64,000 nt of DNA. It comes from Escherichia phage finno. Shown piece after piece: positions 16,870 to 43,559 of this stretch (position 1 is the stretch's first letter; the number at the start of each line of letters is the position of its first letter). Both the position numbers and the translations under genes were made by a program. The stretch lies in the sequence record MN850619.1, one strand, 5' to 3'. The notes below the pieces were generated by a model. That model saw only the letters and a list, made by a program, of their open reading frames with translations. It searched no databases and had not been told where the DNA came from.

Positions 16870-18380
16870 AAATTTTATCGGTTGTCCCAACCTCTGGGTC
16901 ACCATCATATGTGAACAAAATATCTATCCTTCTTAACAACCTTCTTAATCTTACTCTCTATATAGTTATATAGTACTATATAGTATCTTAGTAACTATCT
17001 AGTGGTCTTAATAGCCCTCTGTATAACCCTTCTAACAAGCCCTCTAACAAGCCTTCTTAACAACCTATACAATCACCTTAACCATCCCTCTATACCCTCT
17101 TAGAAGCTCCTATACACCTCTTAATCTCTATGTCAGCTATGACACTCTCTATAGGTGTTCACTAGGTATTACTAAGCCTCTATATAGACTGTTTTAACAA
17201 ACTTAACAGGAATATCTTCACAGACCTTATCTCACAAGGTCTAACACGGTACTAACAAGGTATCTTATAAGCCTGTTTCTACCTGTATTTTTAAAAGACT
17301 GTCTAGGTAATTATTCAGAATTTTAAAATTTTTATAAAATAGGACTATCAAGTCATTTTTTAGGGTCTTTGAAGGAACTGAAAAATATCTGATTAGGATG
17401 TATATCTGCTTGGTAGCCCTTAACATCCCTGTAACATCCCCTTTGCAGAATTTTAAAATATCATTAACAATCTCTTAACAGTTATTACATCTTCTTAACA
17501 TCTCTTCAGAGGTCTTAACAGTTTATTAACAGAACTAACAAGGGTTTAACAGTTTTCTAACAAGTGCTGGATAGTCTTTACAGATGCTTAACAGATGACT
17601 AACAAGAGCTAACAAGTTAATTTTAAAGGGTTATTTTGTTAAGATAATTAACAAGTTTCTAACAAGTGTTTAATCTTTTTAACAAGCTATTAACATGGTC
17701 ACTACTCTTTTCTTATCGTTCCCTCCCCTTTCTTAGTGATTCTTTAAACATACCTCTTAAAAGCTCTGTATAGCTCTGTATAGCCCCTTTTAAGTTTCTT
17801 CCTAGTAACTACAGCCCAACTGTACAGATAGCTCTTTATAGGGCTTTACAGGGGCTTTAAAGGCTATGTCAAAGGTTCTTACAAGGCTTTTACATGGTTG
17901 TAACAGAGATTTAACAAGGGGCTAACAAGTTGCTAACAAGCATAACTATGTAGGATTTGTTAAGAAATTGTTAAGAAAATGTTAAGGGGGCTAGCATTTA
18001 CGTAACTTTTAAGCTACTTCAAAGTAACTTTTAAGCCCCTATAACATGCTTTTAAGACACTAACAAGCCCTTTTTAGTTATTCACAAGATAGCTAACGAG
18101 ATAATAAAGCTTACACCCTTATAAGATTCTTTTAAGGCTCTGAGAAGCTTTATAAAGGGCTTTTAAGGGTGAGGTAATGCAATCCCTTAAGTTAGGTTGA
18201 TAAGGCTGTTATAGGGCGTTATAGAGCGTTTAAGCGGTTACCCTTCCCTCTCGGGTTATGGGCTTATATTTAAGTTGATTTGATAAAAGGCTATAGAGTA
18301 GACTATAGAGTTATTGCTTTTTAAGGTCTGATAAGATTCTGGAAAGGAAAGGGAAAGGGTTGTATAAGGGATTTGATAGA
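16870..18380. repeat. ORF-free region packed with about 30 YTAACA(R)G motifs plus CTATAG/TATAG repeats; candidate origin or protein-binding array
   Basis: Examples: CTAACAAGCCCTCTAACAAGCCTTCTTAACAACC at ~17030; eight copies within 17460-17570; no ORF of 60 aa or more in 1.5 kb. Confidence 0.6.
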
Positions 18381-18386
18381 CGTAAA

Positions 18387-18436
18387 AAAGCCCCTATGGG
18401 AAAGGGGCTGTAAAGGTATCTGGGGCTAAATAGCCC
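18387..18436 (-). terminator. Terminator hairpins ending the minus-strand small-gene array
   Basis: Minus-sense AGCCCCTTTCCCATAGGGGCT followed by TTTTTT, plus a second GGGGCT-aaat-AGCCCC hairpin. Confidence 0.55.
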
Positions 18437-18447
18437 CGCTGCGTCGA

Positions 18448-18696
18448 TTAGTTGCAACCTTGTTTGTTGTAGTACAGGGAGACAATTTTTTCTCCCCAAT
18501 AGTGATAAGTATAACCATCCTTAAGAACTTCCTGTTTTGTTTCCTCCCAGAACTCCTCCGAAGGATTATATCCTTTGATAGTCTGACTGATAAGACCTTT
18601 CACCATTTCAAAGGCGTTATCAGTGCCTACGATGTCAAATTTAACATCCAGAGAGGAAAAACCGAACTCGTTAACAGTAGCGCGGATAGTTGCCAT
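18448..18696 (-). CDS. Hypothetical small early protein
   Basis: 82 aa ORF preceded by a conserved leader with AGGAGA RBS. Confidence 0.55.
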   Translation of the reverse strand: MATIRATVNEFGFSSLDVKFDIVGTDNAFEMVKGLISQTIKGYNPSEEFWEETKQEVLKDGYTYHYWGEKIVSLYYNKQGCN

Positions 18697-18790
18697 TTTT
18701 GAATCTCCTAGTTTAAGGGTTTTATTTAGTGGGGAGGTTGTCGCCTCCCGTTGATTAGTAATTTACTGCATGTTGGCGTATGTTGCAAGC
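18697..18790 (-). promoter_or_regulatory. Repeated promoter/leader element, type 1 (TTGCAA-N17-TAAATT, GGGAGG..CCTCCC hairpin, SD)
   Basis: Minus sense: TTGCAAcatacgccaacatgcagTAAATTACTAATCAACGGGAGGcgacaaCCTCCCCACTAAATAAAACCCTTAAACTAGGAGATTCAAAAATG. Confidence 0.55.
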
Positions 18791-19026
18791 CTTTTTTCGT
18801 TGTATTTTGTAAGAATCTCACAAGATAAAACATCATATTTTGCAACCGCGTTGCCTTTGTCGAGGTCAAAAAAGCCAAACGCTTTACCATCTTTGAATCC
18901 GACAACTTCGTAAGACTCTTTGATGATTTCACCATTGAACAAATCGCTTTCGATACGGTGGAATAATGCTACATCTTCTTTGTCGGTTGCAATTTGTAAA
19001 AGTTTGGTTAATTCTACGTTTTCCAT
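18763..19026 (-). CDS. Hypothetical small early protein
   Basis: 87 aa ORF. Confidence 0.55.
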   Translation of the reverse strand: MENVELTKLLQIATDKEDVALFHRIESDLFNGEIIKESYEVVGFKDGKAFGFFDLDKGNAVAKYDVLSCEILTKYNEKRLATYANMQ

Positions 19027-19110
19027 CTTGATGCCCCTAGTTTAAGGATTTTATTGAGTGGGGGAGGTCATCCCCCGTTAATGAGTAATTTACAGATTTT
19101 TGATTGTCTC
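19027..19110 (-). promoter_or_regulatory. Repeated promoter/leader element, type 1 variant
   Basis: CCCTAGTTTAAGGATTTTATTGAGTGGGGGAGGTCATCCCCCGTTAATGAGTAATTTACAG on the plus strand. Confidence 0.5.
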
Positions 19111-19620
19111 GTCAATGTCTTTTTCAATATCTTTTAAAGTTTTTTCTAAGTTCTTGATATTGAAAGATAAGCCCTCTCCCAATGTTTTGCTGTAACCACT
19201 AGGGCGCAAGTCATGCAGTTCGATTTCTTCCACTTCGAAGAGACTAACCAACTCACCGCTTACACTGTAAGCCATTGAAACAGTATTTGCAGGGGCTTTA
19301 TAGAACTTGTTTAAGGACTTGATAGAACGCTCATAAGCCATTTTATAACCGTTTAAAAGGTCTTTAACGTGGTTGCGAACGTTTTTACACTCATCTAAGT
19401 AAATCCCTAAGAATAGCGGTAATAACTCTGCTACAGCTTGCATAAAGTGAGAGACTACAACGGTTGCAACATTACGACGATGAACGTAATAAGCCCCGTT
19501 TTCTGATTTAGTGATGGTTGCAAAGTGTACCCCATTGCAGCGAAATTCATAGGTATCTTTAACAGGCTTAGACATTACAGCATTTGAGCGAATGTAGTTG
19601 ATAGCTTGAAATTTGTTCAT
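19090..19620 (-). CDS. Hypothetical early protein
   Basis: 176 aa ORF. Confidence 0.55.
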   Translation of the reverse strand: MNKFQAINYIRSNAVMSKPVKDTYEFRCNGVHFATITKSENGAYYVHRRNVATVVVSHFMQAVAELLPLFLGIYLDECKNVRNHVKDLLNGYKMAYERSIKSLNKFYKAPANTVSMAYSVSGELVSLFEVEEIELHDLRPSGYSKTLGEGLSFNIKNLEKTLKDIEKDIDETIKNL

Positions 19621-19805
19621 TTTGACTCTCCTAGTTTAAGGATTTTATTTAGTGGGGAGGTCATTACCTCCCGTTGATTAGTAATTTACTTGTTTTGATA
19701 GCTGATTGCAAGTAATTTTTTAAGTTTATCTTTAAAGAATCTTTTAAGTTAATCCCTTTAAGATAAACCCCCTCGAACAACATTACCAATGTCAAGGGGT
19801 ATTGT
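19621..19805 (-). promoter_or_regulatory. Type 1 leader plus upstream promoter (TTGACA-N17-TAATGT) with tandem TTGACA motif
   Basis: Leader at 19621-19700; ACCAATGTCAAGGGGTATTGTCAACAC at ~19775-19800. Confidence 0.5.
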
Positions 19806-19840
19806 CAACACTTTTTTAAAAGTTTTTTGTAAGTTATTGA

Positions 19841-20227
19841 TTAACTGATGAATATTTTTTCAGGCTTTACGTAGCTGATGCGTTGGTTTTTTAGCAGGTC
19901 ATCCCAGATTAACGCGGCGATATGGGAATAACCGGATTCACGTAATAACTTCATCGTTTTACATCTCGTTTCAAATCGGGTTGCGTAGTACTCGCTATTT
20001 AAAACCGTTTTAGTCCCTTCGTTATCTGTATGGATAATCTGCATCACTTGGAAGGGGCTTACATCCTCACCTTTATTCCATTGCTCAAAGTATTTTAGAC
20101 AATGCATAGGTGTCATCTTATCACTTACTTGAGTTGACCAAGATGAATCCGGTTTATTGGTAATTACAGTTACATAAGCCATTTTTTGAATCTCCAGTTT
20201 AGGATTTTGTTTAGTGGGGAAGGTCAT
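19841..20227 (-). CDS. Hypothetical early protein
   Basis: 128 aa ORF. Confidence 0.55.
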   Translation of the reverse strand: MTFPTKQNPKLEIQKMAYVTVITNKPDSSWSTQVSDKMTPMHCLKYFEQWNKGEDVSPFQVMQIIHTDNEGTKTVLNSEYYATRFETRCKTMKLLRESGYSHIAALIWDDLLKNQRISYVKPEKIFIS

Positions 20228-20300
20228 TCCCTCCCCGTTGATTAGTAATTTACAGATTTTTATCAGGCTTGTCTAGTCTTTTTCTATAATTATTTCATAT
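20228..20300 (-). promoter_or_regulatory. Repeated promoter/leader element, type 1
   Basis: TTGAATCTCCAGTTTAGGATTTTGTTTAGTGGGGAAGGTCATTCCCTCCCCGTTGATTAGTAATTTACAG. Confidence 0.5.
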
Positions 20301-20506
20301 TGACCGTCTACACTATCGAAATAGATACCATCTTCATCTTCTGTCTTAAAGTAACATTGTATGTCATCACTGGCGGGGTAGTCTTGCCTTGCTATCTGAC
20401 AGACCTGAACAGCATTTTCTTTACTTCCTGTAAACTCCTCAAGCCCTTTAAAATCGCATGAATGACCATTACAAATAGAAAGGATAAGATAAACGGTTGT
20501 AAGCAT
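20273..20506 (-). CDS. Hypothetical small protein with N-terminal signal/lipobox-like sequence
   Basis: 77 aa; N-terminus MLTTVYLILSICNGHSC. Confidence 0.45.
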   Translation of the reverse strand: MLTTVYLILSICNGHSCDFKGLEEFTGSKENAVQVCQIARQDYPASDDIQCYFKTEDEDGIYFDSVDGQYEIIIEKD

Positions 20507-20572
20507 GATTTAAGCCTCTTAAAAGCCCCTGTAAGGGGCTGATTAGTGTTTATAAGGTGATTGTATAGGTTT

Positions 20573-21115
20573 TCAGAAAAAGCTCTTTAAATCCTCTTCT
20601 GCGATGTTTCCCGCTAGTGTGTCCATGATGTCACAAAAAACCTGAATACTGTCCGACTGTTGAACACTTTTAGCAAGAAGCTCCAGAGACTCATCAAGAT
20701 AATTTAAATTTGGGTTATCCAATGAAGGAAGACAAAAAGGCGAAAACATCGCATTAAACTCGGTTACGTAAACCTTTTTAATCCAATTTAAATCGAAGTA
20801 TTCTGTAAAACTTGCTACGCCAGCCATATTATCACAAGAATAATCATCATTCAGCTCATCCTCTGGAATATCGAGTTCTAAGATAACAATATTTTGAGTC
20901 TTCATCTGAAAAGCTGCGGTGATAGTGGCATTGCCTAGAGCTTGCTGGATACCTTCAGAGATTATCTCTTCCTCATCGTCGCCATAGATTTTATTTTCTG
21001 GGTACACGTAAAAATTGCCGTCCATATCCGAACAATTCCATGCGCCTGATGGTTTATCACCGTTATTAATCAGGTTGAGGAAATTTTCTTGAGTAGTACC
21101 GTGAAAGCATTTCAT
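20573..21115 (-). CDS. Hypothetical acidic protein
   Basis: 180 aa ORF. Confidence 0.55.
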   Translation of the reverse strand: MKCFHGTTQENFLNLINNGDKPSGAWNCSDMDGNFYVYPENKIYGDDEEEIISEGIQQALGNATITAAFQMKTQNIVILELDIPEDELNDDYSCDNMAGVASFTEYFDLNWIKKVYVTEFNAMFSPFCLPSLDNPNLNYLDESLELLAKSVQQSDSIQVFCDIMDTLAGNIAEEDLKSFF

Positions 21116-21200
21116 TTTAGAATCTCCAGTTTAGGATTTAGTGGTAAAGCTCTTTATCTGGGGCTTAAGATATCAACTTTTAAGCCCCATGTAAAGCACT
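21116..21200 (-). promoter_or_regulatory. Repeated promoter/leader element, type 2 (TTTACA-N17-TATCTT with palindromic GGGGCTTAA..TTAAGCCCC spacer)
   Basis: Plus strand: AAAGCTCTTTATCTGGGGCTTAAGATATCAACTTTTAAGCCCCATGTAAAGCAC. Confidence 0.5.
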
Positions 21201-21404
21201 TTATTTGTTATTTTTTACAACTTTTAAAACTGCACGATAGCCTAAGCAATAAGAATCACCGAAGAGCGACCGACCCATGAAAGAATCCTCTTTTATATCC
21301 TTTGCAGTGACAGTTTTTTCTACGCCGTGAAAGAGAACTACATCACCAACTTTAATATCTTTGATGTGTGTAGTTTCAATGGTTAAACCGTTAATAATAG
21401 CCAT
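21201..21404 (-). CDS. Hypothetical small protein
   Basis: 67 aa ORF. Confidence 0.5.
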   Translation of the reverse strand: MAIINGLTIETTHIKDIKVGDVVLFHGVEKTVTAKDIKEDSFMGRSLFGDSYCLGYRAVLKVVKNNK

Positions 21405-21505
21405 TTTTGAATCTCCAGTTTAGGACTTTATTTAGTGGGGAAGGTCATTCCCGCCCCGTTGATGTGTAATTTACTCTATCTAAAAACCAGTGTCAACAAA
21501 AATTT
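21405..21505 (-). promoter_or_regulatory. Repeated promoter/leader element, type 1 (TTGACA-N17-TAAATT); identical copy at 22454-22542
   Basis: About 95 nt identical to the 22454-22542 copy, including AACCAGTGTCAACA. Confidence 0.55.
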
Positions 21506-21910
21506 TTAGAGTTCTGCATAAATTGCATCACAGACATCACGAAAATCGTGATTTGTCAAATTACGTTGTAACCAAGTGGCAAAGAAATCAGCGATTGCAA
21601 AATTAGCGTCATACTCGACGGATAGCCATACTTTAACAGCAAACCGAAACATTTTCAAATCAAGCTCTTTATTCATTACCTTAGATTTGCCTAACATGTC
21701 GGACATTTCATATTGTGCACCGTCTAGCGTGATACCTGCTGCAACGTCAGCCAATGAGTTTTTTACGTTTTCAACGTCTAAGATAACGCTTTGAATCTTC
21801 CCAATAATGTTGTGCAATGTCTCATCAGGCGCTGATGATGTCAGAACATTAATCCGGTTAACGGTCAAACGCGCTTTTAAGATTGATAACTCACGGTTAT
21901 TAATAGCCAT
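21506..21910 (-). CDS. Hypothetical protein
   Basis: ORF track 21506..21925; start trimmed to MAINN because the first residues lie in the repeat element and the RBS GGAGAACTTAAAA precedes this ATG. Confidence 0.5.
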   Translation of the reverse strand: MAINNRELSILKARLTVNRINVLTSSAPDETLHNIIGKIQSVILDVENVKNSLADVAAGITLDGAQYEMSDMLGKSKVMNKELDLKMFRFAVKVWLSVEYDANFAIADFFATWLQRNLTNHDFRDVCDAIYAEL

Positions 21911-21996
21911 TTTTAAGTTCTCCAATTTAGGATTTAGGGGTAAAGCTCTTTATCTGGGGCTTACTTTATCGAACTATAAGCCCCCTGTAAAGTACT
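21911..21996 (-). promoter_or_regulatory. Repeated promoter/leader element, type 2
   Basis: AAAGCTCTTTATCTGGGGCTTACTTTATCGAACTATAAGCCCCCTGTAAAGTAC. Confidence 0.5.
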
Positions 21997-22269
21997 TTAT
22001 ACTAAATGCAGCTTTTTACCTTTTACTATGATGTAACTCGATGCGCTATTGCTTTGCACATCCTGATAAATTCTGCGCAAACGGCCTTCGTAGTATACTT
22101 TCCAACTGGTTGGAATCTTTTTCCCGTATCCTGTAGCAGTTTTTTGTAGTCCTGCAAGTTGCCAATCTAAGATATGTTGTTCGGCTTGTAAATCCTCGAA
22201 GTGCATTACACCGTTCACATAGTGACGAAGGGTTACGTTTAAGGTGCGACCGTTGTTAGTAGTATACAT
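21997..22269 (-). CDS. Hypothetical protein
   Basis: ORF track 21997..22311; start trimmed to MYTTNNG (ATG at 22267-22269). Confidence 0.5.
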   Translation of the reverse strand: MYTTNNGRTLNVTLRHYVNGVMHFEDLQAEQHILDWQLAGLQKTATGYGKKIPTSWKVYYEGRLRRIYQDVQSNSASSYIIVKGKKLHLV

Positions 22270-22294
22270 TTTAAAAGCTCCTAGTTTAAGGATT

Positions 22295-22453
22295 TTATTT
22301 TGACAGTTCACTAATTAAGACATCAAAGACTATATCATTATCTGCTACAGTTGCAACACCAGTGATATAATCAATTTCTAAGATAACAACAACTTTCGTA
22401 CATAAACCGTCATCTATATCATTCCATACAACTTTATCACCTGCACAAAACAT
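22295..22453 (-). CDS. Hypothetical small protein (52 aa, below the ORF-track cutoff)
   Basis: Hand translation MFCAGDKVVWNDIDDGLCTKVVVILEIDYITGVATVADNDIVFDVLISELSK, preceded by the type 1 leader and RBS. Confidence 0.4.
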   Translation of the reverse strand: MFCAGDKVVWNDIDDGLCTKVVVILEIDYITGVATVADNDIVFDVLISELSK

Positions 22454-22542
22454 TTTTTGAATCTCCAGTTTAGGACTTTATTTAGTGGGGAAGGTCATTC
22501 CCGCCCCGTTGATGTGTAATTTACTCTATCTAAAAACCAGTG
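22454..22542 (-). promoter_or_regulatory. Repeated promoter/leader element, type 1 (duplicate of 21405-21505)
   Basis: Identical sequence TTGAATCTCCAGTTTAGGACTTTATTTAGTGGGGAAGGTCATTCCCGCCCCGTTGATGTGTAATTTACTCTATCTAAAAACCAGTGTCAACA. Confidence 0.55.
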
Positions 22543-22875
22543 TCAACAGTTTTGTTTTCGTTTGTTCAATTCTTGGACAATTACAGCGTAATAGTCTTTT
22601 AAGTCACTGATATTTAAAGCATTTATCAGAGAGTTATAATCATCGACTAACTGAAAATCATCTTTGAAGATGTCACTTATCTGATAGGTTTTCGCTTTAT
22701 ATCTGAAGCTCATCTCTAGCCGCTTTATTTGCTCATCACTGAGGCGCCCTAGAAAGCTTTCTACAAGGTTATTTCTAACCTGCTGTGTGATTGCCTTATT
22801 TGCTAGATTATAGGCTTTATATGCCTTATAAAGCGCGAGAATGGCAATGATTGCAGTGATGCCAGTCATTAACAT
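22543..22875 (-). CDS. Hypothetical membrane-anchored protein
   Basis: 110 aa; N-terminal TM helix MLMTGITAIIAILALYKAY. Confidence 0.55.
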   Translation of the reverse strand: MLMTGITAIIAILALYKAYKAYNLANKAITQQVRNNLVESFLGRLSDEQIKRLEMSFRYKAKTYQISDIFKDDFQLVDDYNSLINALNISDLKDYYAVIVQELNKRKQNC

Positions 22876-23165
22876 GGTGTTTCCTCTTTACGTGATACTT
22901 TGCCACTTACAGTTATCTCATAAGATTCTAATAAATCGCTTTTAGACTTTACAGGGATTTTAAAAGTATCATCATAAATATTGACCTGCAATACAGGTTT
23001 TTTATACTCCCTGCAACTATTCCATAAGCAAATCACTACACGACGGCCTTTTATTTTTCCGTGTAACCATTCCATAACATCATGGCTATTCCTTGATGTC
23101 TCAATAAAATCAATTTTGTTAAGTAACTTGCTTAGATTTTCACGGACTTTATTTGATAATTTCAT
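22869..23165 (-). CDS. Hypothetical protein, translationally coupled to the downstream gene
   Basis: 98 aa ORF overlapping the next start by 7 nt. Confidence 0.5.
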   Translation of the reverse strand: MKLSNKVRENLSKLLNKIDFIETSRNSHDVMEWLHGKIKGRRVVICLWNSCREYKKPVLQVNIYDDTFKIPVKSKSDLLESYEITVSGKVSRKEETPC

Positions 23166-23256
23166 TTTAGAGTCTCCTAGTTTAAGGGTTAATTTGATAA
23201 AGCTCTTTATCTGGGGCTATCATATCAGCTTGTTAGCCCCGTGTAAAGAGGTCTAT
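23166..23256 (-). promoter_or_regulatory. Repeated promoter/leader element, type 2 variant
   Basis: AAAGCTCTTTATCTGGGGCTATCATATCAGCTTGTTAGCCCCGTGTAAAGAGG. Confidence 0.45.
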
Positions 23257-23769
23257 TTAGTTCTTAAAGATATTCATCACTGAATCTTTTAATGCTTCCA
23301 AACGTTCTAATACTTCAGCCTCTGCGTCTGAATTGCTCACCTCTTCTTTTAATCTATCTTCTAAATCCTCACCGTCACTATAGCACCAATCAAAGGCATA
23401 TCCTAGATAAAAACTCTCTAAAACCGTGTTGTCATTTGCATCGATAACTTTCGCGGCAAGGTTGTATTCTGAAGCTTCTAAATCTCTTTCTAGTTCTTTC
23501 TGTAAGCTGATGTAAGCCTGTTTTGATGGGTTTTCCCGGCCTTGTTTTGCATAGTCACTAGAAAGCTGCTTAAGGCTATAATTTAAAGGGATTGCATATT
23601 TAAAATCGTTACGCTGACAGTTAGGGTTTTTAATAGTCACGCCGCCTTGATGGTCATCTGTAAACTTCCAATTATCAAGATTATGGCTTGCTTCGTAGCA
23701 ATTTACCGCTTCATAGATAATGGTGAATTTTTCTTTTACAACTTCAAAGGTAGCGTCTACAGTTTTCAT
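23257..23769 (-). CDS. Hypothetical acidic protein
   Basis: 170 aa ORF. Confidence 0.55.
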   Translation of the reverse strand: MKTVDATFEVVKEKFTIIYEAVNCYEASHNLDNWKFTDDHQGGVTIKNPNCQRNDFKYAIPLNYSLKQLSSDYAKQGRENPSKQAYISLQKELERDLEASEYNLAAKVIDANDNTVLESFYLGYAFDWCYSDGEDLEDRLKEEVSNSDAEAEVLERLEALKDSVMNIFKN

Positions 23770-23854
23770 TTTTGAATCTCCAATTTAGGATTTAGTGGTA
23801 AAGCTCTTTATCTGGGGCTTAAGATATCAACTTTTAAGCCCCTTGTAAAGTACT
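23770..23854 (-). promoter_or_regulatory. Repeated promoter/leader element, type 2
   Basis: Near-identical to the 21116-21200 copy. Confidence 0.5.
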
Positions 23855-24148
23855 TTATTTGTTATTTTTCAGCTTTGCATAACTTCTCATTGTACGAATG
23901 GGGGATGTTAAGGCTATGCGTCTAATATATGCCTTTTTCGTGTATACATTTGTCTTCCCGATAGTGCTTACACATGTAAAAAGGTTTATCGGTGAATTTT
24001 TTAGCTTCAACTGTTTATCAGCCTTCACGCCCCACCTTACAGCAGATTGTTTTCCGTTGTCAACCACTTTCCCGCATAACTTTTTAGCCATAGCGCGAGC
24101 GTCATCACGAGTTTTTGCAGTAATTACAACGTTTTTGATAATAGCCAT
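23855..24148 (-). CDS. Hypothetical basic protein
   Basis: ORF track 23855..24163; start trimmed to MAIIKN after the repeat/RBS. Confidence 0.5.
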   Translation of the reverse strand: MAIIKNVVITAKTRDDARAMAKKLCGKVVDNGKQSAVRWGVKADKQLKLKNSPINLFTCVSTIGKTNVYTKKAYIRRIALTSPIRTMRSYAKLKNNK

Positions 24149-24234
24149 TTTTAAGTTCTCCAATTTAGGATTTAGTGGTAAAGCTCTTTATCTGGGGCTT
24201 ACTTTATCGAACTATAAGCCCCTTGTAAAGTACT
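24149..24234 (-). promoter_or_regulatory. Repeated promoter/leader element, type 2
   Basis: Minus-sense TTTACA-aggggcttatagttcga-TAAAGT with palindromic GGGGCTTA..TAAGCCCC. Confidence 0.5.
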
Positions 24235-24618
24235 TTATTCGTTAATTTTGAAGATTGTTACATAACCATCGCTCCCGATGATTTGCGATACCCCAGCTTT
24301 TTCTACTTTATAGCCCATATTTTCAAGATGATAAACAGCATCATCATAACCATATGCGCCACCCTGATAACGTCGCTTATCGCATTTTATCAGGTTTTTA
24401 CCACGTCCAGCAAGTGCATTCAGTACAGCTTTTTCACTTGATAGCGTACCATCTAACATGGTTGCCGTGTAATGGTTGATTCTATTCCCGTTTACATCAT
24501 ACTTAAAATTGAATGCGTGAACAACAATAATGTTGCCTTTAAAATTCTCATCAAGTGACTTCTCCAGTACTTTGCGAAAGTTGTCTTTGTTGATGAATTT
24601 CGGTGCACGATAAGCCAT
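24235..24618 (-). CDS. Hypothetical protein
   Basis: 127 aa ORF. Confidence 0.55.
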   Translation of the reverse strand: MAYRAPKFINKDNFRKVLEKSLDENFKGNIIVVHAFNFKYDVNGNRINHYTATMLDGTLSSEKAVLNALAGRGKNLIKCDKRRYQGGAYGYDDAVYHLENMGYKVEKAGVSQIIGSDGYVTIFKINE

Positions 24619-24704
24619 TTTTGAATCTCCTAGTTTAAGGTTAGTTAGTAAAGCTCTTTATCTGGGGCTTACTTTATCGAACTATAAGCCCCTTGTAAAG
24701 TACT
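24619..24704 (-). promoter_or_regulatory. Repeated promoter/leader element, type 2
   Basis: Near-identical to the 24149-24234 copy. Confidence 0.5.
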
Positions 24705-24911
24705 TTATTTATCGTAGTAATAAATTGCTGTCTGTCTTGTAAACTTCTTAGTATTTCTTGTCAGATAGCAATTAGAATTAATAGCCGTTTCTACATAGTT
24801 GCAATAGTCAGCTTCTGATATTCTGGACCACACGCCACAGATTTGCATGTAAAAACGTTTTGCCTTTGTGTTAATGTTAGTTGTAACCATCAATTCGCGA
24901 CTGTACAGCAT
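24705..24911 (-). CDS. Hypothetical small Cys-containing protein (first gene of the array)
   Basis: 68 aa ORF. Confidence 0.5.
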   Translation of the reverse strand: MLYSRELMVTTNINTKAKRFYMQICGVWSRISEADYCNYVETAINSNCYLTRNTKKFTRQTAIYYYDK

Positions 24912-25317
24912 TTTTAGATTCTCCAGTTTAGGAAGTGGGCTTGATTGCCCGTCTGATGCAAATATTAGATAACCATACTCAAAGAGTCAATAGAAATTTT
25001 AAAAATATTTTTTTTTTTTTGCAAAATTGTAATGAAACGGGTGCGCGCGACTACCACAAAACAGAACTACAATCAAGAATTATTTTTCAATCCGCTACAA
25101 ATTTTTCTGTTGACTTTTATTTCCAGATGTGGTAGCCTTGTGAGAAATAGCGACATCCCCACCTACACCCACCTACCTGCACAATTCTAAAATGATTTTT
25201 CTTGCCCGACCTGATTTTTCTCTGCACGTTTTGAAAATGATTTTTCTATCCGGCGATGAGATTTTTTGGGATATCTGTACAGACCCCTCCAGATACCTGC
25301 ACAAATTGAAAATGAAA
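24912..25317 (-). promoter_or_regulatory. Upstream control region of the small-gene array (16-nt poly-T tract, direct GAAAATGATTTTTCT repeats)
   Basis: About 400 nt without ORFs; T16 at ~25005-25020; two copies of GAAAATGATTTTTCT plus a related GAAAATGAAAAAGG. Confidence 0.4.
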
Positions 25318-25372
25318 AAGGCCGCCTTACCTTAAATTTTTCAATGGGTTAGGCAGCCTTCTTAGATGATTT
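25318..25372 (-). terminator. Putative terminator after the macro-domain gene (imperfect 12-bp stem + T-run)
   Basis: Minus-sense GGCTGCCTAACC...GGTAAGGCGGCC followed by TTTTTCATTTTC. Confidence 0.4.
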
Positions 25373-25393
25373 GTAGATACTGTGAAGTACTAA

Positions 25394-26173
25394 TCAGCTT
25401 ATGAATTTGAACTTTTTAGAATACATCAAGTAGTGAACTTCATCCTGATTTGTTGTGTAGATGTACGCTGCTGGGTAGTTATCAAAGAACACCCCTTCAT
25501 ATCTTCCAAACGGGTCAACTGGGAACATTTCACTGTTACACATACCCATCTCACTAACCAGAGGGTAACTAACCTCAACCTTGCCATCAACAAGCTGATA
25601 GAGGGTAACTTGATTAGTCTTCCCGTCACTTAGCACGACACCATCATAGAATTGTGGTGCTGAGGTAGCATACTTAGGGGTAACTACACTTGCCATTGCT
25701 TCATCATAGACGTATAGGTACACATCAACGTTATACATAACACTATTAATGAGGCTTTTCACAGCTTGTGCATCTAAACCACCTATACCTGCCCCAATCA
25801 TGGGTAAACCAATCTTACGAATGTTGTGCAGCCAGCAAAATTTACGGAGTTTTTCTAGTGACTCCACTAAGTATCGGTATGATGCACACTTCCCAACATC
25901 CAACTGTGTATATAGGTTAAAAATGTAACCATACTCCGTTCGAGCATGTGACACCTCACCAACCATCTGGTATCCGATATCATGAGCACTGTAGCCAAAC
26001 TTTTTATGGAATTTCCGGTCAGCTTCTTCAGCTTTTGGGAAAATCTTAGCAATTTTTTGAGCGATTCCAGCACCCATGAGGTTACGACAGTTGCAACCAT
26101 GAGCAATTAACTCAATATCTGTGTTTTTGAAGGCAGCCAGTAAGTTACCTTTCACAACTTTTACAATACCCAT
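25394..26173 (-). CDS. Macro-domain protein (ADP-ribose binding/processing), with C-terminal extension of unknown function
   Basis: 259 aa; ELIAHGCNCRNLMGAGIAQKIAKIFP and IGLPMIGAGIGGLD resemble the two macro-domain glycine-rich motifs. Confidence 0.5.
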   Translation of the reverse strand: MGIVKVVKGNLLAAFKNTDIELIAHGCNCRNLMGAGIAQKIAKIFPKAEEADRKFHKKFGYSAHDIGYQMVGEVSHARTEYGYIFNLYTQLDVGKCASYRYLVESLEKLRKFCWLHNIRKIGLPMIGAGIGGLDAQAVKSLINSVMYNVDVYLYVYDEAMASVVTPKYATSAPQFYDGVVLSDGKTNQVTLYQLVDGKVEVSYPLVSEMGMCNSEMFPVDPFGRYEGVFFDNYPAAYIYTTNQDEVHYLMYSKKFKFIS

Positions 26174-28201: not shown

Positions 28202-28897
28202 TCAATGTTTAACTAACATGGTTTTGATGTGTGGAAGGATTCTGTTCACCTTCTGCACATTCTTCTCTGTATCTTCTATAAAACATACTATATTAAAGTA
28301 AGGCAGAATGCAAGACTGAATCATCCTCACTTTCAAACTTTCTGCACTTATAGAGTTAGTACCAAAACCACGCATAAAAAGCATGTAGTCATGCTCTGTG
28401 TTATGTCTTAAAAACATCTCAGTAGGTATTCTCTGAGATTCGCCTCTCGCTGTCAAGAGTCCAACAGCAGCATGATTAGCAATTGCATCAATGATATTGA
28501 AAACATACGTTGGTTTTGCTCTTACAGAGTCAAGAAGATTAGTGTACTGCGAAAATGAACCATCAGTCAATTCCGTTGAACAATCTTCGTGATTAAAATT
28601 TGTAAGAACTCCATCAATATCTGCTAAGATAAGATTACCTTTCTCTACAAGGTCTTTATTGACTATGACTAAACTATCACGTTTTACACCTATGGATTGT
28701 CCAGTCTCTTTGTCCACAACGTTCACAATTGGTTCTGATGTGTGGAACTCTTCAAGTGAACATACAACTTCTCTTGCGGTGTCTTCAAAATCCCTGCACT
28801 GTTCTGGAGTCCATACACAGGAATCAAGACCTAGCTCATGAGGGTGCAAGTCATAAGCATGGCACAATACTTCATCAGACTTTCTTAATTTTTTCAT
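28202..28897 (-). CDS. HAD-like hydrolase domain protein (possible 5'-nucleotidase/phosphatase)
   Basis: 231 aa; LILADIDGVLT matches HAD motif I (DxDGV/T); N-terminal ~90 aa extra domain. Confidence 0.4.
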   Translation of the reverse strand: MKKLRKSDEVLCHAYDLHPHELGLDSCVWTPEQCRDFEDTAREVVCSLEEFHTSEPIVNVVDKETGQSIGVKRDSLVIVNKDLVEKGNLILADIDGVLTNFNHEDCSTELTDGSFSQYTNLLDSVRAKPTYVFNIIDAIANHAAVGLLTARGESQRIPTEMFLRHNTEHDYMLFMRGFGTNSISAESLKVRMIQSCILPYFNIVCFIEDTEKNVQKVNRILPHIKTMLVKH

Positions 28898-29423
28898 GGT
28901 TTACCTTAGAAATGTTTGTTGCAAATTCACATTGAGCGATTACTTTCATATTGTTATAGACATCTTGAGAATATTTCTTAGCTTTAGGGATTCTGTACGA
29001 ATACCCAGCATTATATGATGCTAAAACTTTTTGTAAAGTCTTCTTTGACTTTGGCTGACCATGCACCTTTGTCCAAAACTCAAGCTCTTTGTGAGTTTCC
29101 TTAGCAGCATAGTCAAAGTCTTTTAAGAGTTTCTTTTTAGCCACATTAGGACTGATTTTGTTACGCTTTACAACAGTCTTCAAGTGATTCTGGAAAATAC
29201 CATAATCATGCGTCTTTTTATTCTCTACCTTCAGACCTAACTCTGACTCTTGTAAGGCTATAGCAGCTAGAGTGATACCCCAACCTTTACCCATGTTATT
29301 CTCACCATACTGGTAAGCTTTTAACATGTTTACTTTTTGGCTAATTGATAGCTCTGGGCAGTCAACTGCATAAGATAAGTGTGCTGTAAACATTAAGCAC
29401 AAACCTAGAATCAATTTCTTCAT
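28875..29423 (-). CDS. Secreted protein with signal peptide; possible lytic transglycosylase/lysozyme-like domain
   Basis: 182 aa; N-terminus MKKLILGLCLMFTAHLSYA; QESELG...YGIFQ resembles the SLT ES...GLMQ motif. Confidence 0.35.
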   Translation of the reverse strand: MKKLILGLCLMFTAHLSYAVDCPELSISQKVNMLKAYQYGENNMGKGWGITLAAIALQESELGLKVENKKTHDYGIFQNHLKTVVKRNKISPNVAKKKLLKDFDYAAKETHKELEFWTKVHGQPKSKKTLQKVLASYNAGYSYRIPKAKKYSQDVYNNMKVIAQCEFATNISKVNHEKIKKV

Positions 29424-33654: not shown

Positions 33655-35436
33655 TTAAAGCTGCTTGTCAATATTATTTCGAATATCACCAAGAGTTGTG
33701 TAACCGAACTGCTCAGAGTCACTAAAGACTAAACGTAAAGCACAAGCTGGGTGGTCAAGTACATCTGCAAAACTCTGGAATCCATAGCCATCTACAGCTT
33801 TCAGCTTATCACCATCCCACATAGGTGCTACACCACCAAAGGCAGATTTCTTAACACCACTATCTGTTTTAGGGTCTTTTGCAAGCATAATCTCTTTACC
33901 ACCAATGCTTGCAAGAGTTGCTTTGACAGCAAATGCAAAGGTGTCACGAGTCATGTACTGGTAAGTGTAAGAACCTACGCCAAACACCACGTTAGAGCTT
34001 GCAAAACCCATTTCATACAGACGCTTCAGGATTTCGTTTGCACGTTCCAGTGTGATAGAGTCACCATAGATAAGGCCGATATGCTCGTCCAGTACCTTAA
34101 ATCCTTTAGAGTTAATAGTTCCCCCAAAGATGTTGTACAGTGTCTTAATAGCTCCATCAATCTCAGCTACAGGACGTGTTACAACGTTTGCAGAGCCAAC
34201 CATATAAGCATTTTTCAACATCACTGTATCAGCAACTTCAAAGTCTTCTCGGTCAACAACCATTTCGTAGCCTTCTGACAGTAGCCATCCAGCAATACCA
34301 TAGCTGATGTTTTCAAGCTTCATGTTCAGAACAGCATTCAGCATTGTGTCACTGGCTTCCAGCTTGCTTAGGTGCTCGTAATAAGCCTTTTTAGCACACT
34401 CTAAGTGGATTGCTTTATAACCTGTGACAATATGTACAGGGTCTCCAGAGTCAGGACGAATTACCAGTTTACCGTCACGTTCCATAATTTCTTTACGAAG
34501 TGCTGGTAAGATTTCTGACACAGTTCTCCAGAAGTTATAAGTGTCTGAAACAATACTTGCAATACCAGTTGGGTAAGTTTCTGTTAAGAAACGACGGAAG
34601 GTTTGTAACTCACCTTTAAATCGTCTTTCTTCTTCAACCAACTCGTTACCACCTTCCCAAGCAATGTTTGCACACATTACAGAGTGTTCAGTGGCTGGTA
34701 CAGAGCTTCCAATATCAGAGATTGGATAGGTCTGCCCATAGATACGTTTAGCCGTGTATACAGCAGGGAAGCTATCAGTCCCTTTAAAGCTGGTTAAGTG
34801 TCCTACAGCGTTGAATGCGTCATCAGTAAAGCCGGACATACCACGCATAGCAAAGTCATGGCACTGATAAGGTAAATGCAAGTCGTTGTCGCAAGTGAGG
34901 TCAGCCCACTTCTTACAGATACGTTTGTAGTGCAATGCAATAGTTGCAATGGTGCAAGCCTTCCAAATCTCAGCAGAGAAAGCGTCTTCTAGATAACCTG
35001 CTACCCAATGGAAACCTGAAACAGTGTTCTGGAAGACAATCATTGGAACACGCATAGGAACAACTGTACCTTCTTCTACAGCGTATACTTCAACTGGTAG
35101 ATAGCCTAAATCGTGAAGTGCTTCCCAATGCTCTCGACCGATAGCATCTTTACCCAGAACACCATTCATGACTTCTAAGATTTCGTCAACTGCTCCTTTT
35201 TTATCACGTTCAAAGAAAGTGGCGTTCCAGTGGTCTATCAAGTAATCTTTAACAAAACGTTGAATACCAAAAGCTACTACACCATCAATTGCTAAGGGGC
35301 TGTTAAACCATTTGTCGCTACGTGGTGTCAGGTTGAACATCAAGTAATCTGTTGCACTGGGGTATTGGTAAACATGGCCAGATTTGTAAGCGTCCGCGTT
35401 TAAACCTGCTGGTACTGCATAAAGTGATTTAGTCAT
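33655..35436 (-). CDS. nadV: Nicotinamide phosphoribosyltransferase family protein (NadV/NAMPT-like; possibly the Namat-type nicotinamide ADPR transferase of a NAD+ reconstitution pathway)
   Basis: 593 aa; NADAYKSGH, VPATEHSVM, VSDTYN, IRPDSGDP, GDSI and FGVGSYTYQYMTRDT match conserved NAMPT motifs; ~100-aa insertion relative to canonical NAMPT. Confidence 0.8.
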   Translation of the reverse strand: MTKSLYAVPAGLNADAYKSGHVYQYPSATDYLMFNLTPRSDKWFNSPLAIDGVVAFGIQRFVKDYLIDHWNATFFERDKKGAVDEILEVMNGVLGKDAIGREHWEALHDLGYLPVEVYAVEEGTVVPMRVPMIVFQNTVSGFHWVAGYLEDAFSAEIWKACTIATIALHYKRICKKWADLTCDNDLHLPYQCHDFAMRGMSGFTDDAFNAVGHLTSFKGTDSFPAVYTAKRIYGQTYPISDIGSSVPATEHSVMCANIAWEGGNELVEEERRFKGELQTFRRFLTETYPTGIASIVSDTYNFWRTVSEILPALRKEIMERDGKLVIRPDSGDPVHIVTGYKAIHLECAKKAYYEHLSKLEASDTMLNAVLNMKLENISYGIAGWLLSEGYEMVVDREDFEVADTVMLKNAYMVGSANVVTRPVAEIDGAIKTLYNIFGGTINSKGFKVLDEHIGLIYGDSITLERANEILKRLYEMGFASSNVVFGVGSYTYQYMTRDTFAFAVKATLASIGGKEIMLAKDPKTDSGVKKSAFGGVAPMWDGDKLKAVDGYGFQSFADVLDHPACALRLVFSDSEQFGYTTLGDIRNNIDKQL

Positions 35437-43324: not shown

Positions 43325-43559
43325 TATTCACCTCTGCCATAAAATTCTGTAGCGTACCAACAGGTTTTAGGTTTTGTCCATCAGTTTTCATGATGAATGG
43401 CATCTGACGAACTGGCATCTGTGCAATATCCATCAGGTCTGATAGCTCATAGTCCTGCCCTAACATTCTCACAACATGGTCAATACCACGAGCTTTTGCA
43501 AAATTCTTTGCAGTCTCACACTGAGGGCATCCAGTTTTGGAGTAAATTACATAAGTCAT
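43317..43559 (-). CDS. Glutaredoxin/thioredoxin-like redoxin (CPQC active site)
   Basis: 80 aa; YSKTGCPQCETAK is a glutaredoxin-type CxxC motif; adjacent to the RNR genes. Confidence 0.8.
   Translation of the reverse strand: MTYVIYSKTGCPQCETAKNFAKARGIDHVVRMLGQDYELSDLMDIAQMPVRQMPFIMKTDGQNLKPVGTLQNFMAEVNNA

Follow-up and report, generated by a model that had tools for sequence, protein, structure and literature searches.

The DNA analysed here is a 64,000-nucleotide window from the record of Escherichia phage finno (MN850619.1), to which all positions refer. The source is an Escherichia coli Felixounavirus, a Felix O1-like myovirus of the subfamily Ounavirinae. Between 18448 and 24911 the window contains an array of 16 small genes, all on the minus strand and encoding proteins of 52–180 residues, that are separated by repeated promoter/hairpin modules; these modules are the subject of this report. 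The array lies between a macro-domain gene (25394-26173, labelled 'phosphatase') located directly upstream, with its terminator, and a canonical intrinsic terminator. This arrangement of macro-domain gene, array and terminator was found in all four Ounavirinae genera sampled (Felixounavirus, Mooglevirus, Suspvirus and Kolesnikvirus).

A megablast search with positions 18300-25400 matched 255 phage records, of which the top matches were to the E. coli Felixounaviruses NBEco004, HMD-P10 and skuden (88–95% identity). Most of the matches were mosaic and split into 2–11 separate pieces. For comparison across loci, the window was combined with 16 related loci to give a set of 17 Ounavirinae loci. 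Modules were found across this set, in which the array contains from 9 to 20 genes.

Two families of intergenic modules

A module is present upstream of 13 of the 16 array genes. Six are of type 1 (upstream of the genes starting at 22453, 21404, 20182, 19620, 19026 and 18696), six are of type 2 (24618, 24148, 23769, 23165, 21910 and 21115), and a third form, type-1-like, precedes the first gene (24911), with TTGACT-N17-TAATAT followed by a GGGCaatcaaGCCC hairpin (GGGC..GCCC). An array of about 16 genes with two element families had been proposed from an earlier reading of the sequence (the original prediction) and is confirmed. The accompanying claim of an element in nearly every gap holds for these 13 genes and fails for three that have no promoter module: the gene starting at 22875 overlaps its neighbour (ATGTTAA), that at 22269 has the leader alone, and that at 20506 is preceded by a different hairpin.

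Type 1 modules consist, in order, of TTGACA, TTGCAA, TTGACG or TAGACA, a 17-nt spacer, TAAATT, a hairpin and the leader ACTAAATAAA.TCCT(T)AAACT(A)GGAGA. Type 2 modules contain TTTACA-N17-TAAAGT, TATCTT or TATGAT with GGGGCTTA..TAAGCCCC, followed by the invariant CCCCAGATAAAGAGCTTTA. In five of the six type 2 copies, a TAA stop codon forms the first three bases of the module. In 14 genes the ATG is preceded at 7–9 nt by GGAGA, which is replaced by GGGGC in g16. A repeat search showed that two type 1 copies (21404-21498 and 22454-22548) are 100% identical over 95 nt, as had been noted before.

Pattern searches of the 64 kb found the type 2 19-mer core, CCCCAGATAAAGAGCTTTA, at six sites that all fall within 3.6 kb, and the leader, as (C)CTAAACTGGAGA or CTTAAACTAGGAGA, at 15 sites, every one within the array (18697-24932). 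Covariance-model searches likewise placed all type 1 and type 2 matches of the window inside the array. Because the core, the leader and the covariance-model matches are confined in this way, the repeat families are not chance occurrences. An additional type 1 copy at 43542 was discarded as a chance 9-mer within coding sequence that lacks a hairpin. A host or prophage source of the module was also dropped, as the type 2 19-mer gave only seven single matches in 185,579 species genomes, close to the estimated chance number. No Rfam family was matched between 16000 and 26000 at E <= 1, apart from one chance match.

The promoter-like elements are conserved. Among 47 distinct type 2 cores from the window and the 16 related loci, TTTACA is invariant, and the -10 element is TAnnnT at 17-bp spacing in 42, with the other five fitting an 18-bp spacer. 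The three middle positions of this -10 element are nearly free, and TG is present at -15/-14 in 23 of the 47 cores. Conservation of T-12 and A-11, which are unpaired in the hairpin loop, is best explained by -10 function. The type 1 promoters were compared using 72 distinct upstream sequences anchored on the hairpin, which share an A-tract at -49 to -44 (A in 50–66 of the 72 copies at each position), TTGACA/TTGCAA at -39 to -34, a variable 17-nt spacer, and TAAATT/TAAAGT at -16 to -11. In several type 1 copies, the A-tract, -35 element and spacer are formed by the last codons of the upstream gene, with its TAA stop within the -10 element; thus, the promoter signals are kept within unrelated coding sequence. 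The modules are therefore best read as host sigma70 promoters for individual genes, with starts predicted about 7 nt downstream of the -10 element (for instance, around 21461-21459 in a type 1 copy and around 24664-24662 in a type 2 copy). Promoters for each gene, as originally proposed, are supported in silico by this pattern, in which the -35 element, the spacer and T-12/A-11/T-7 are conserved and neighbouring positions vary.

Both families contain a hairpin. The type 1 hairpins have G/C stems of 4–8 bp. All 96 copies collected across the loci, which represent 47 distinct stem sequences, fold (-4.7 to -15.6 kcal/mol), compared to 1% of random 50-nt windows of this genome. A hand-anchored alignment of these stems was abandoned since the stem lengths differ, and a covariance-model alignment was used instead. 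In the alignment of 77 distinct copies, 95.6% of cells are paired and three pairs are changed on both sides, with a covariation score of 0.112 versus at most 0.042 when the partners were slid. At one pair, 41 copies have G·U, 10 have A-U and a further 10 have G-C.

The type 2 hairpin is 58 nt long. Above its lower stem (6+5 bp) and a 3x3 internal loop, an upper stem of 9 bp is capped by a loop of 11–13 nt, and the whole folds at -23.6 to -24.5 kcal/mol (z -3.9 to -4.3). Across 94 distinct copies, paired cells make up 98.7% of the total, and seven pairs show double changes (covariation score 0.21 versus at most 0.032 with slid partners). One upper-stem position, for example, is C-G in Felixounavirus, U·G in Mooglevirus and others, and U-A in one Suspvirus copy; another is U-A in Kolesnikvirus and G-C everywhere else. 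The covariation in both types indicates that the hairpins of the original prediction are real. The palindromic spacer that it described for type 2, however, is the top of this three-part hairpin, which starts from the upstream stop codon.

The type 2 alignment contains 164 G·U cells and only four A·C cells. This excess, together with the compensatory changes, indicates that pairing is selected in the sense strand only, which argues against an antisense function and against a duplex-DNA operator. The simplest reading is that the hairpins fold in the sense strand as RNA.

The two hairpins are positioned differently relative to the promoters. In type 1, the -10 element ends 11 nt before the hairpin, such that the predicted start lies 2–4 nt before the stem and the transcript would carry a 5'-terminal stem-loop. 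A 5'-terminal stem-loop shields mRNA from 5'-end-dependent decay in E. coli. The type 2 hairpin has the upstream stop codon at the base of its lower stem; its 5' arm contains the -35 element, its loop and 3' arm contain the -10 element, and the predicted start coincides with the end of its upper stem. The type 2 hairpin would thus be present only on read-through transcripts from the upstream gene, and its sense-strand pairing implies that the array is transcribed by both read-through and internal promoters, with polycistronic as well as internally initiated messages. The term 'leader hairpins' therefore suits type 1, where the hairpin lies within the leader of the gene's own transcript, but not type 2, where it lies upstream of the predicted start.

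Gene content change at the modules

The window was compared to 14 relatives by blastn to locate breakpoints. Of 88 internal alignment ends, 65 fall in modules versus an expected 21% (modules constitute 19–21% of the array). For relatives of the same genus, no alignment end lies more than 6 nt from a module, and adjoining alignments share a 30–90 nt overlap inside the repeat. Presence or absence distinguishes g16, g02-g03, g07 and g10-g12 among the loci, and g01 and g04 are replaced. Extra array genes are found in ASO1A, wV8, Mordin and SUSP2, g13-g16 are lost in BPS17L1, and the gene order differs in Kolesnikvirus.

Most gene families keep one type of upstream module, with exceptions where a neighbouring cassette has been inserted or lost, which suggests that a module and its downstream gene move together. 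Paralogous module copies within a genome (78–86% identical) equal or exceed in similarity the orthologous copies between genera (71–83% identical). Between genera, orthologous and non-orthologous copies are about equally similar, and the stem variants are lineage-specific. These similarities indicate that the module copies undergo concerted evolution. Recombination between copies, which had been suggested from the identical pair, is supported in silico by both the breakpoints and the concerted evolution.

The locus is probably a hyperplastic accessory-gene array made of self-contained promoter/hairpin cassettes that are exchanged at the modules. Each cassette would begin where the preceding gene reaches its stop codon, or close by, and comprise an A-rich tract, a host sigma70 promoter, a G-run/C-run hairpin, a near-uniform leader with a GGAG Shine-Dalgarno sequence, and one small open reading frame (ORF). 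A type 1 module would provide the gene's own transcript with a 5'-terminal stem-loop. In type 2, the hairpin may mark, protect or attenuate the 3' end of the upstream message, and the embedded promoter would restart transcription. The hairpins would thus act as message boundaries, stabilisers or attenuators rather than as classical terminators. The modules, 70–100 bp long and in the same orientation between unrelated genes, would serve as substrates for homologous recombination, through which cassettes would be deleted, inserted, replaced or reordered and copies homogenised within a lineage.

Several points weigh against this interpretation. Sense-strand pairing would also fit a folded non-template DNA strand, and the covariance-model alignments were fitted to the proposed structures and so favour them. 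The copies are related by descent and gene conversion, such that the covariation and breakpoint counts do not represent independent events and overstate independence; distinct indel events number only roughly ten. The hairpins have no U-tract, with only one or two T in the 8 nt past the stem in nearly all 77 type 1 and 94 type 2 copies, which makes classical termination unlikely and the stabilising or insulating role an indirect deduction. No mapping of transcription starts or 3' ends for any relative was found in the searchable literature. Finally, end-point reverse-transcription PCR of Felix O1 gave mixed timing, with ORFs 16, 20, 21 and 22 peaking at 5 min but ORFs 17, 19 and 23 at 25 min. 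The designation of the array as early genes is consistent with the former four of the seven ORFs tested and not with the latter three; early timing of the array as a whole is thus plausible rather than established.

Four other explanations were considered. The type 2 hairpins could be sites at which RNase III or another endonuclease cuts a read-through early transcript into single-gene mRNAs, with the promoter-like hexamers being secondary. Their ~20 bp in three segments (6+5+9 bp) with a 3x3 internal loop form an interrupted helix that resembles the T7 early RNase III sites, and sense-strand RNA pairing implies read-through transcription. This explanation is nevertheless unlikely, as a processing site gives no reason for keeping T-12, A-11 and TGn, which are unpaired; the type 1 stems of 4–8 bp are too short, and the Rfam search gave no matching family. 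It is rather improbable that the hairpins are terminators or attenuators that isolate each cassette, although the ASO1A record annotates the type 1 hairpins as WebGeSTer terminators and, in phage RB49, the stem-loop of the promoter-early stem-loop (PeSL) element PeSL211/210 cut downstream lacZ as strongly as rrnB T1. The absence of a U-tract in the 77 type 1 and 94 type 2 copies argues otherwise, as do the type 2 loops of 11–13 nt and the location of the type 1 hairpin within its own transcript, where it would stop its own gene. Moreover, a consensus terminator scan misses the module hairpins yet calls the terminator at 18389-18409. Classical terminators were rejected for want of a U-tract.

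The position of the inverted repeats, over the spacer and -10 element in type 2 or over the start site in type 1, is typical of operators, and the palindromes could be duplex-DNA sites for a dimeric phage regulator that jointly shuts off the early promoters. We consider this very improbable, since symmetry is kept only in the folding of one strand (164 G·U versus four A·C cells), and since complementarity is preserved through 47 widely differing stem variants; the half-site spacing also varies. That the repeats are merely leftovers of tandem duplication of gene plus promoter, with no selected role, is scarcely credible: the two copies identical over 95 nt would fit, but the flanked genes belong to separate, unrelated families, the modules are conserved across four genera with their variable positions free, and the compensatory changes indicate selection on structure. 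A RegB-like shut-off of the GGAG leaders was also dropped, as its candidate, the Felix O1 ORF3 homolog at 28875-29423 on the minus strand, gives only a sub-threshold match to SLT transglycosylase; the 'endoribonuclease' label in the record of a relative looks unsupported.

Array proteins and neighbouring features

None of the 16 array proteins has a Pfam match. In PHROG, 15 fall into families of unknown function and one into no family, and no function could be assigned to 15 of the genes, all except g11. The features of the array and its boundaries are listed in Table 1.

Table 1. Genes, modules and boundary elements of the cassette array.
Feature	Position	Strand	Description
Upstream terminator	25315..25358	-	hairpin + T-run after macro-domain gene, read from sequence; upstream boundary of array region
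First module	24912..25000	-	type-1-like: A/T tract, TTGACT 24990-24985, N17, TAATAT 24967-24962
First module hairpin	24950-24937	-	GGGCAATCAAGCCC, then leader CCTAAACTGGAGA
Cassette array	18448..24911	-	16 small genes; Felix O1 ORFs 15-23 + extra genes
g01	24705..24911	-	68 aa, phrog_5293
Type 2 module	24619..24712	-	TTTACA-N17-TAAAGT within 58-nt hairpin, then AGATAAAGAGCTTTAC, leader, Shine-Dalgarno sequence
g02	24235..24618	-	127 aa, phrog_4495
Type 2 module	24149..24242	-	
g03	23855..24148	-	97 aa, phrog_5089
Type 2 module	23770..23862	-	-10 TGaTATCTT
g04	23257..23769	-	170 aa, phrog_4190
Type 2 module	23166..23256	-	variant arms GGGGCTA/TAGCCCC; lower stem altered yet complementary; -10 TGaTATGAT
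g05	22869..23165	-	98 aa, phrog_4401
g06	22543..22875	-	110 aa, phrog_4375; no module, start overlaps g05 stop (ATGTTAA)
Type 1 module	22454..22548	-	100% identical to 21404-21498
g07	22295..22453	-	52 aa, no PHROG; in 5 of 17 loci only
Leader-only junction	22270..22297	-	before g08; g07 insertion/deletion site
g08	21997..22269	-	90 aa, phrog_3436
Type 2 module	21911..22004	-	
g09	21506..21910	-	134 aa, phrog_4327
Type 1 module	21405..21505	-	TTGACA 21496-21491, TAAATT 21473-21468, hairpin 21457-21437
g10	21201..21404	-	67 aa, phrog_3623
Type 2 module	21116..21208	-	
g11	20573..21115	-	180 aa, predicted ADP-ribosyltransferase fold, HGT..Y..E-type residues conserved; Bas63 gp107 homolog
g11-g12 intercistronic hairpin	20524..20540	-	AGCCCCTTACAGGGGCT; in neither module family
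g12	20273..20506	-	77 aa, phrog_4640
Type 1 module	20183..20277	-	-35 TAGACA overlaps g12 stop codon
g13	19841..20182	-	113 aa, phrog_4318
Gene-less module	19716..19840	-	predicted TTGACA-N17-TAATGT promoter, conserved, + ~50-nt AU-rich hairpin
Type 1 module	19621..19715	-	-35 TTGCAA
g15	19090..19620	-	176 aa, phrog_4725; last codons hold A-tract, -35 and spacer of next promoter
Type 1 module	19027..19115	-	-35 TTGACG in coding sequence; hairpin GGGGGAtgaccTCCCCC
g16	18763..19026	-	87 aa, phrog_7022; absent from NBEco004 and Felix O1
Type 1 module	18697..18790	-	-35 TTGCAA in coding sequence
g17	18448..18696	-	82 aa, phrog_4559
Closing terminator	18389..18409	-	canonical intrinsic terminator, AGCCCCTTTCCCATAGGGGCT + TTTTTT; called by consensus terminator scan

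The g11 protein is predicted to have an ADP-ribosyltransferase fold, based on an AlphaFold model (pLDDT 96, the predicted local distance difference test score) that was built from a 70-sequence alignment; the profile search gave 270 cluster representatives. In the alignment, H5, G6 and T7 are at least 90% conserved and Y36 is invariant; the glutamate E80 is present in the consensus only. One of the 70 relatives has a weak PARP match and two match DUF6912 in Pfam; the protein from the window has neither. A search of the PDB with the g11 sequence profile gave nothing significant. The homolog in Bas63, gp107, has been reported to be more important on strain S17-1 and to be faintly Tpt1-like. The suggestion that the array encodes host-takeover or anti-defence proteins thus gains limited support from the predicted fold of g11; the other 15 genes have no assignable function. 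A 593-residue protein encoded elsewhere in the window (33655-35436, minus strand) contains NAPRTase and NAMPT N-terminal domains, which point to an enzyme of NAD salvage, and may be relevant to NAD-depleting host defences and to an NAD-using g11.

The array contains further elements. The hairpin between g11 and g12, which belongs to neither module family, is kept across genera with differing loop sequences, and g12 lacks the common leader. The gene-less module downstream of g13 is conserved in three genera, apparently more than the neighbouring genes, with a TTGACA-N17-TAATGT/TAACTT promoter. One compensatory U-A/A-U change in its hairpin (centroid -16 kcal/mol, z -3.2) distinguishes the window from Felix O1. 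The module may represent a small RNA, or it may provide the next gene with a second, long 5' untranslated region.

Counterparts of the terminator that follows the macro-domain gene are annotated in the wV8 and ASO1A records. The 400-nt non-coding gap between this terminator and the first array promoter contains three direct repeats of ~43 nt (CTGCACAATTCTAAAATGATTTTT...; 25177-25339), and a small ORF is annotated in this gap in some relatives. A long A/T tract directly precedes the first array promoter and includes 13 consecutive A (25004-25025); this A run may be an UP-like element and is likely a site of sequencing or replication slippage. At the other end, positions 17412-17991 are homologous (78% over 584 nt) to a terminal repeat of 570 bp with which the annotated genome of Citrobacter phage HP1 ends, and the mistaenkt record begins at the equivalent of ~18006. 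Therefore, the physical end of the genome probably lies about 400 bp beyond the array terminator, with transcription of the array running towards it. The 17412-17991 stretch also contains TTAACA-rich direct repeats (17515-17695).

Comparison with known systems

Both repeats have been recorded before. The Felix O1 genome paper lists them as 57-bp and 39-bp 'direct repeats', outside its promoter count (Whichard et al. 2010, PMC3185647); the 57-bp repeat, CTTTACATGGGGCTTA...AGAGCTTTACCACT, corresponds to type 2 and the 39-bp repeat, TTGACACTGGTTTTTAGATAGATTAAATTACACATCAAC, to type 1. The module repeats are marked DR_1-DR_9 in the wV8 GenBank record and are not mentioned in the text of the wV8 paper. 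In the ASO1A record, type 1 is annotated as a promoter with a software-predicted terminator, and the AYO145A record also carries promoter and terminator features. Within the searchable literature, the earlier reports thus treat these elements as repeats or as separate software-predicted features, and no analysis of their structure, covariation or breakpoints was found.

The early region of T7 is similar in its transcription by host polymerase, its small takeover genes near the genome end and its intercistronic hairpins. T7, however, has promoters only at the start of the region (three strong host promoters) and relies on RNase III processing, whereas in the array a separate promoter precedes nearly every gene, and RNase III would need longer stems than most of the hairpins provide.

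Integrons also contain single-gene cassettes parted by imperfect palindromes (attC) that fold in one specific strand. Integron cassettes, in contrast, lack promoters and need an integrase acting on the folded attC, and the crossovers observed here are spread over 30–90 nt of shared sequence, as expected for homologous recombination. No integrase is annotated on the genes adjoining the array in the records of relatives; the window itself was not scanned directly. The strand-specific, strongly selected pairing, the presence of modules at every breakpoint and the proximity of the array to a genome end, where single-stranded DNA intermediates arise, could nonetheless suggest that the hairpins do more than stabilise or insulate RNA and are recognised by a factor, of phage or host origin, that steers the exchange of cassettes or a coupling of processing to re-initiation. 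The array would then be a phage counterpart of integrons, with gains and losses of its promoter-bearing cassettes governed by folded single-stranded sites instead of by homology alone. We regard this as quite improbable.

The closest likeness is to the PeSL cassettes described for the T4-type phages RB49/phi1, PST/T4 and nt-1/KVP40, for which promoter and terminator activities as well as mini-circles have been shown experimentally (Arbiol et al. 2010, PMC2839356; Comeau et al. 2014, PMC4122927). In both systems, repeated intergenic modules occupy a hyperplastic region of small ORFans, the upstream gene has its stop codon within A/T-rich sequence, and a polyG..polyC stem-loop with G-T pairs accompanies a promoter of the sigma70 type whose spacer is N17 (TTTACW in T4/PST, TTTACA here). 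This stem-loop lies between the -35 and -10 elements, over the -10 or just past it; here, it spans the spacer and -10 in type 2 and is located 11 nt past the -10 in type 1. In both systems the module ends in a Shine-Dalgarno sequence and ATG, and modules are found at the insertion, deletion and replacement breakpoints between relatives.

The two systems also differ. The present modules occur in another subfamily, Ounavirinae, and comprise only two sharply defined families with a long shared leader in one terminal array; the type 2 stem-loop reaches 58 nt, with the stop codon at its beginning. Activities and mini-circles are experimental results for the T4-type phages, whereas the promoters described here are predicted from sequence. 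A blastn search of 50,697 phage records showed no similarity of either module to T4-type phages; the matches were almost only to phages of Escherichia, Salmonella, Shigella, Citrobacter and Erwinia, and all matching records inspected were Ounavirinae, with two oddly named records left out. PeSL cassettes are described only for T4-type phages within the searchable literature. The original prediction was largely right but incomplete, having missed both this likeness and the role of the modules as sites of gene content change.

The phage group concerned includes Felix O1, the BASEL phage Bas63 and many isolates used in therapy and biocontrol. For such genomes, the modules supply a rule that locates the sites of gene content change, a set of about 13 host promoters per genome that are predicted to be strong and have uniform leaders, for testing or reuse, and a list of individually expressed ORFan cassettes, including g11 downstream of the macro-domain gene, for host-takeover and anti-defence screening. 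A covarying sense-strand hairpin around a promoter additionally poses a testable question about the coupling of read-through and re-initiation. All the architectural features of PeSL cassettes that could be tested were found in the array, which, judged from its sequence, has a PeSL-type architecture in another subfamily; the likeness is architectural rather than a demonstration of common descent. The promoter plus stem-loop cassette design of T4-type phages thus appears to organise the accessory array of an unrelated and widely used phage group as well.

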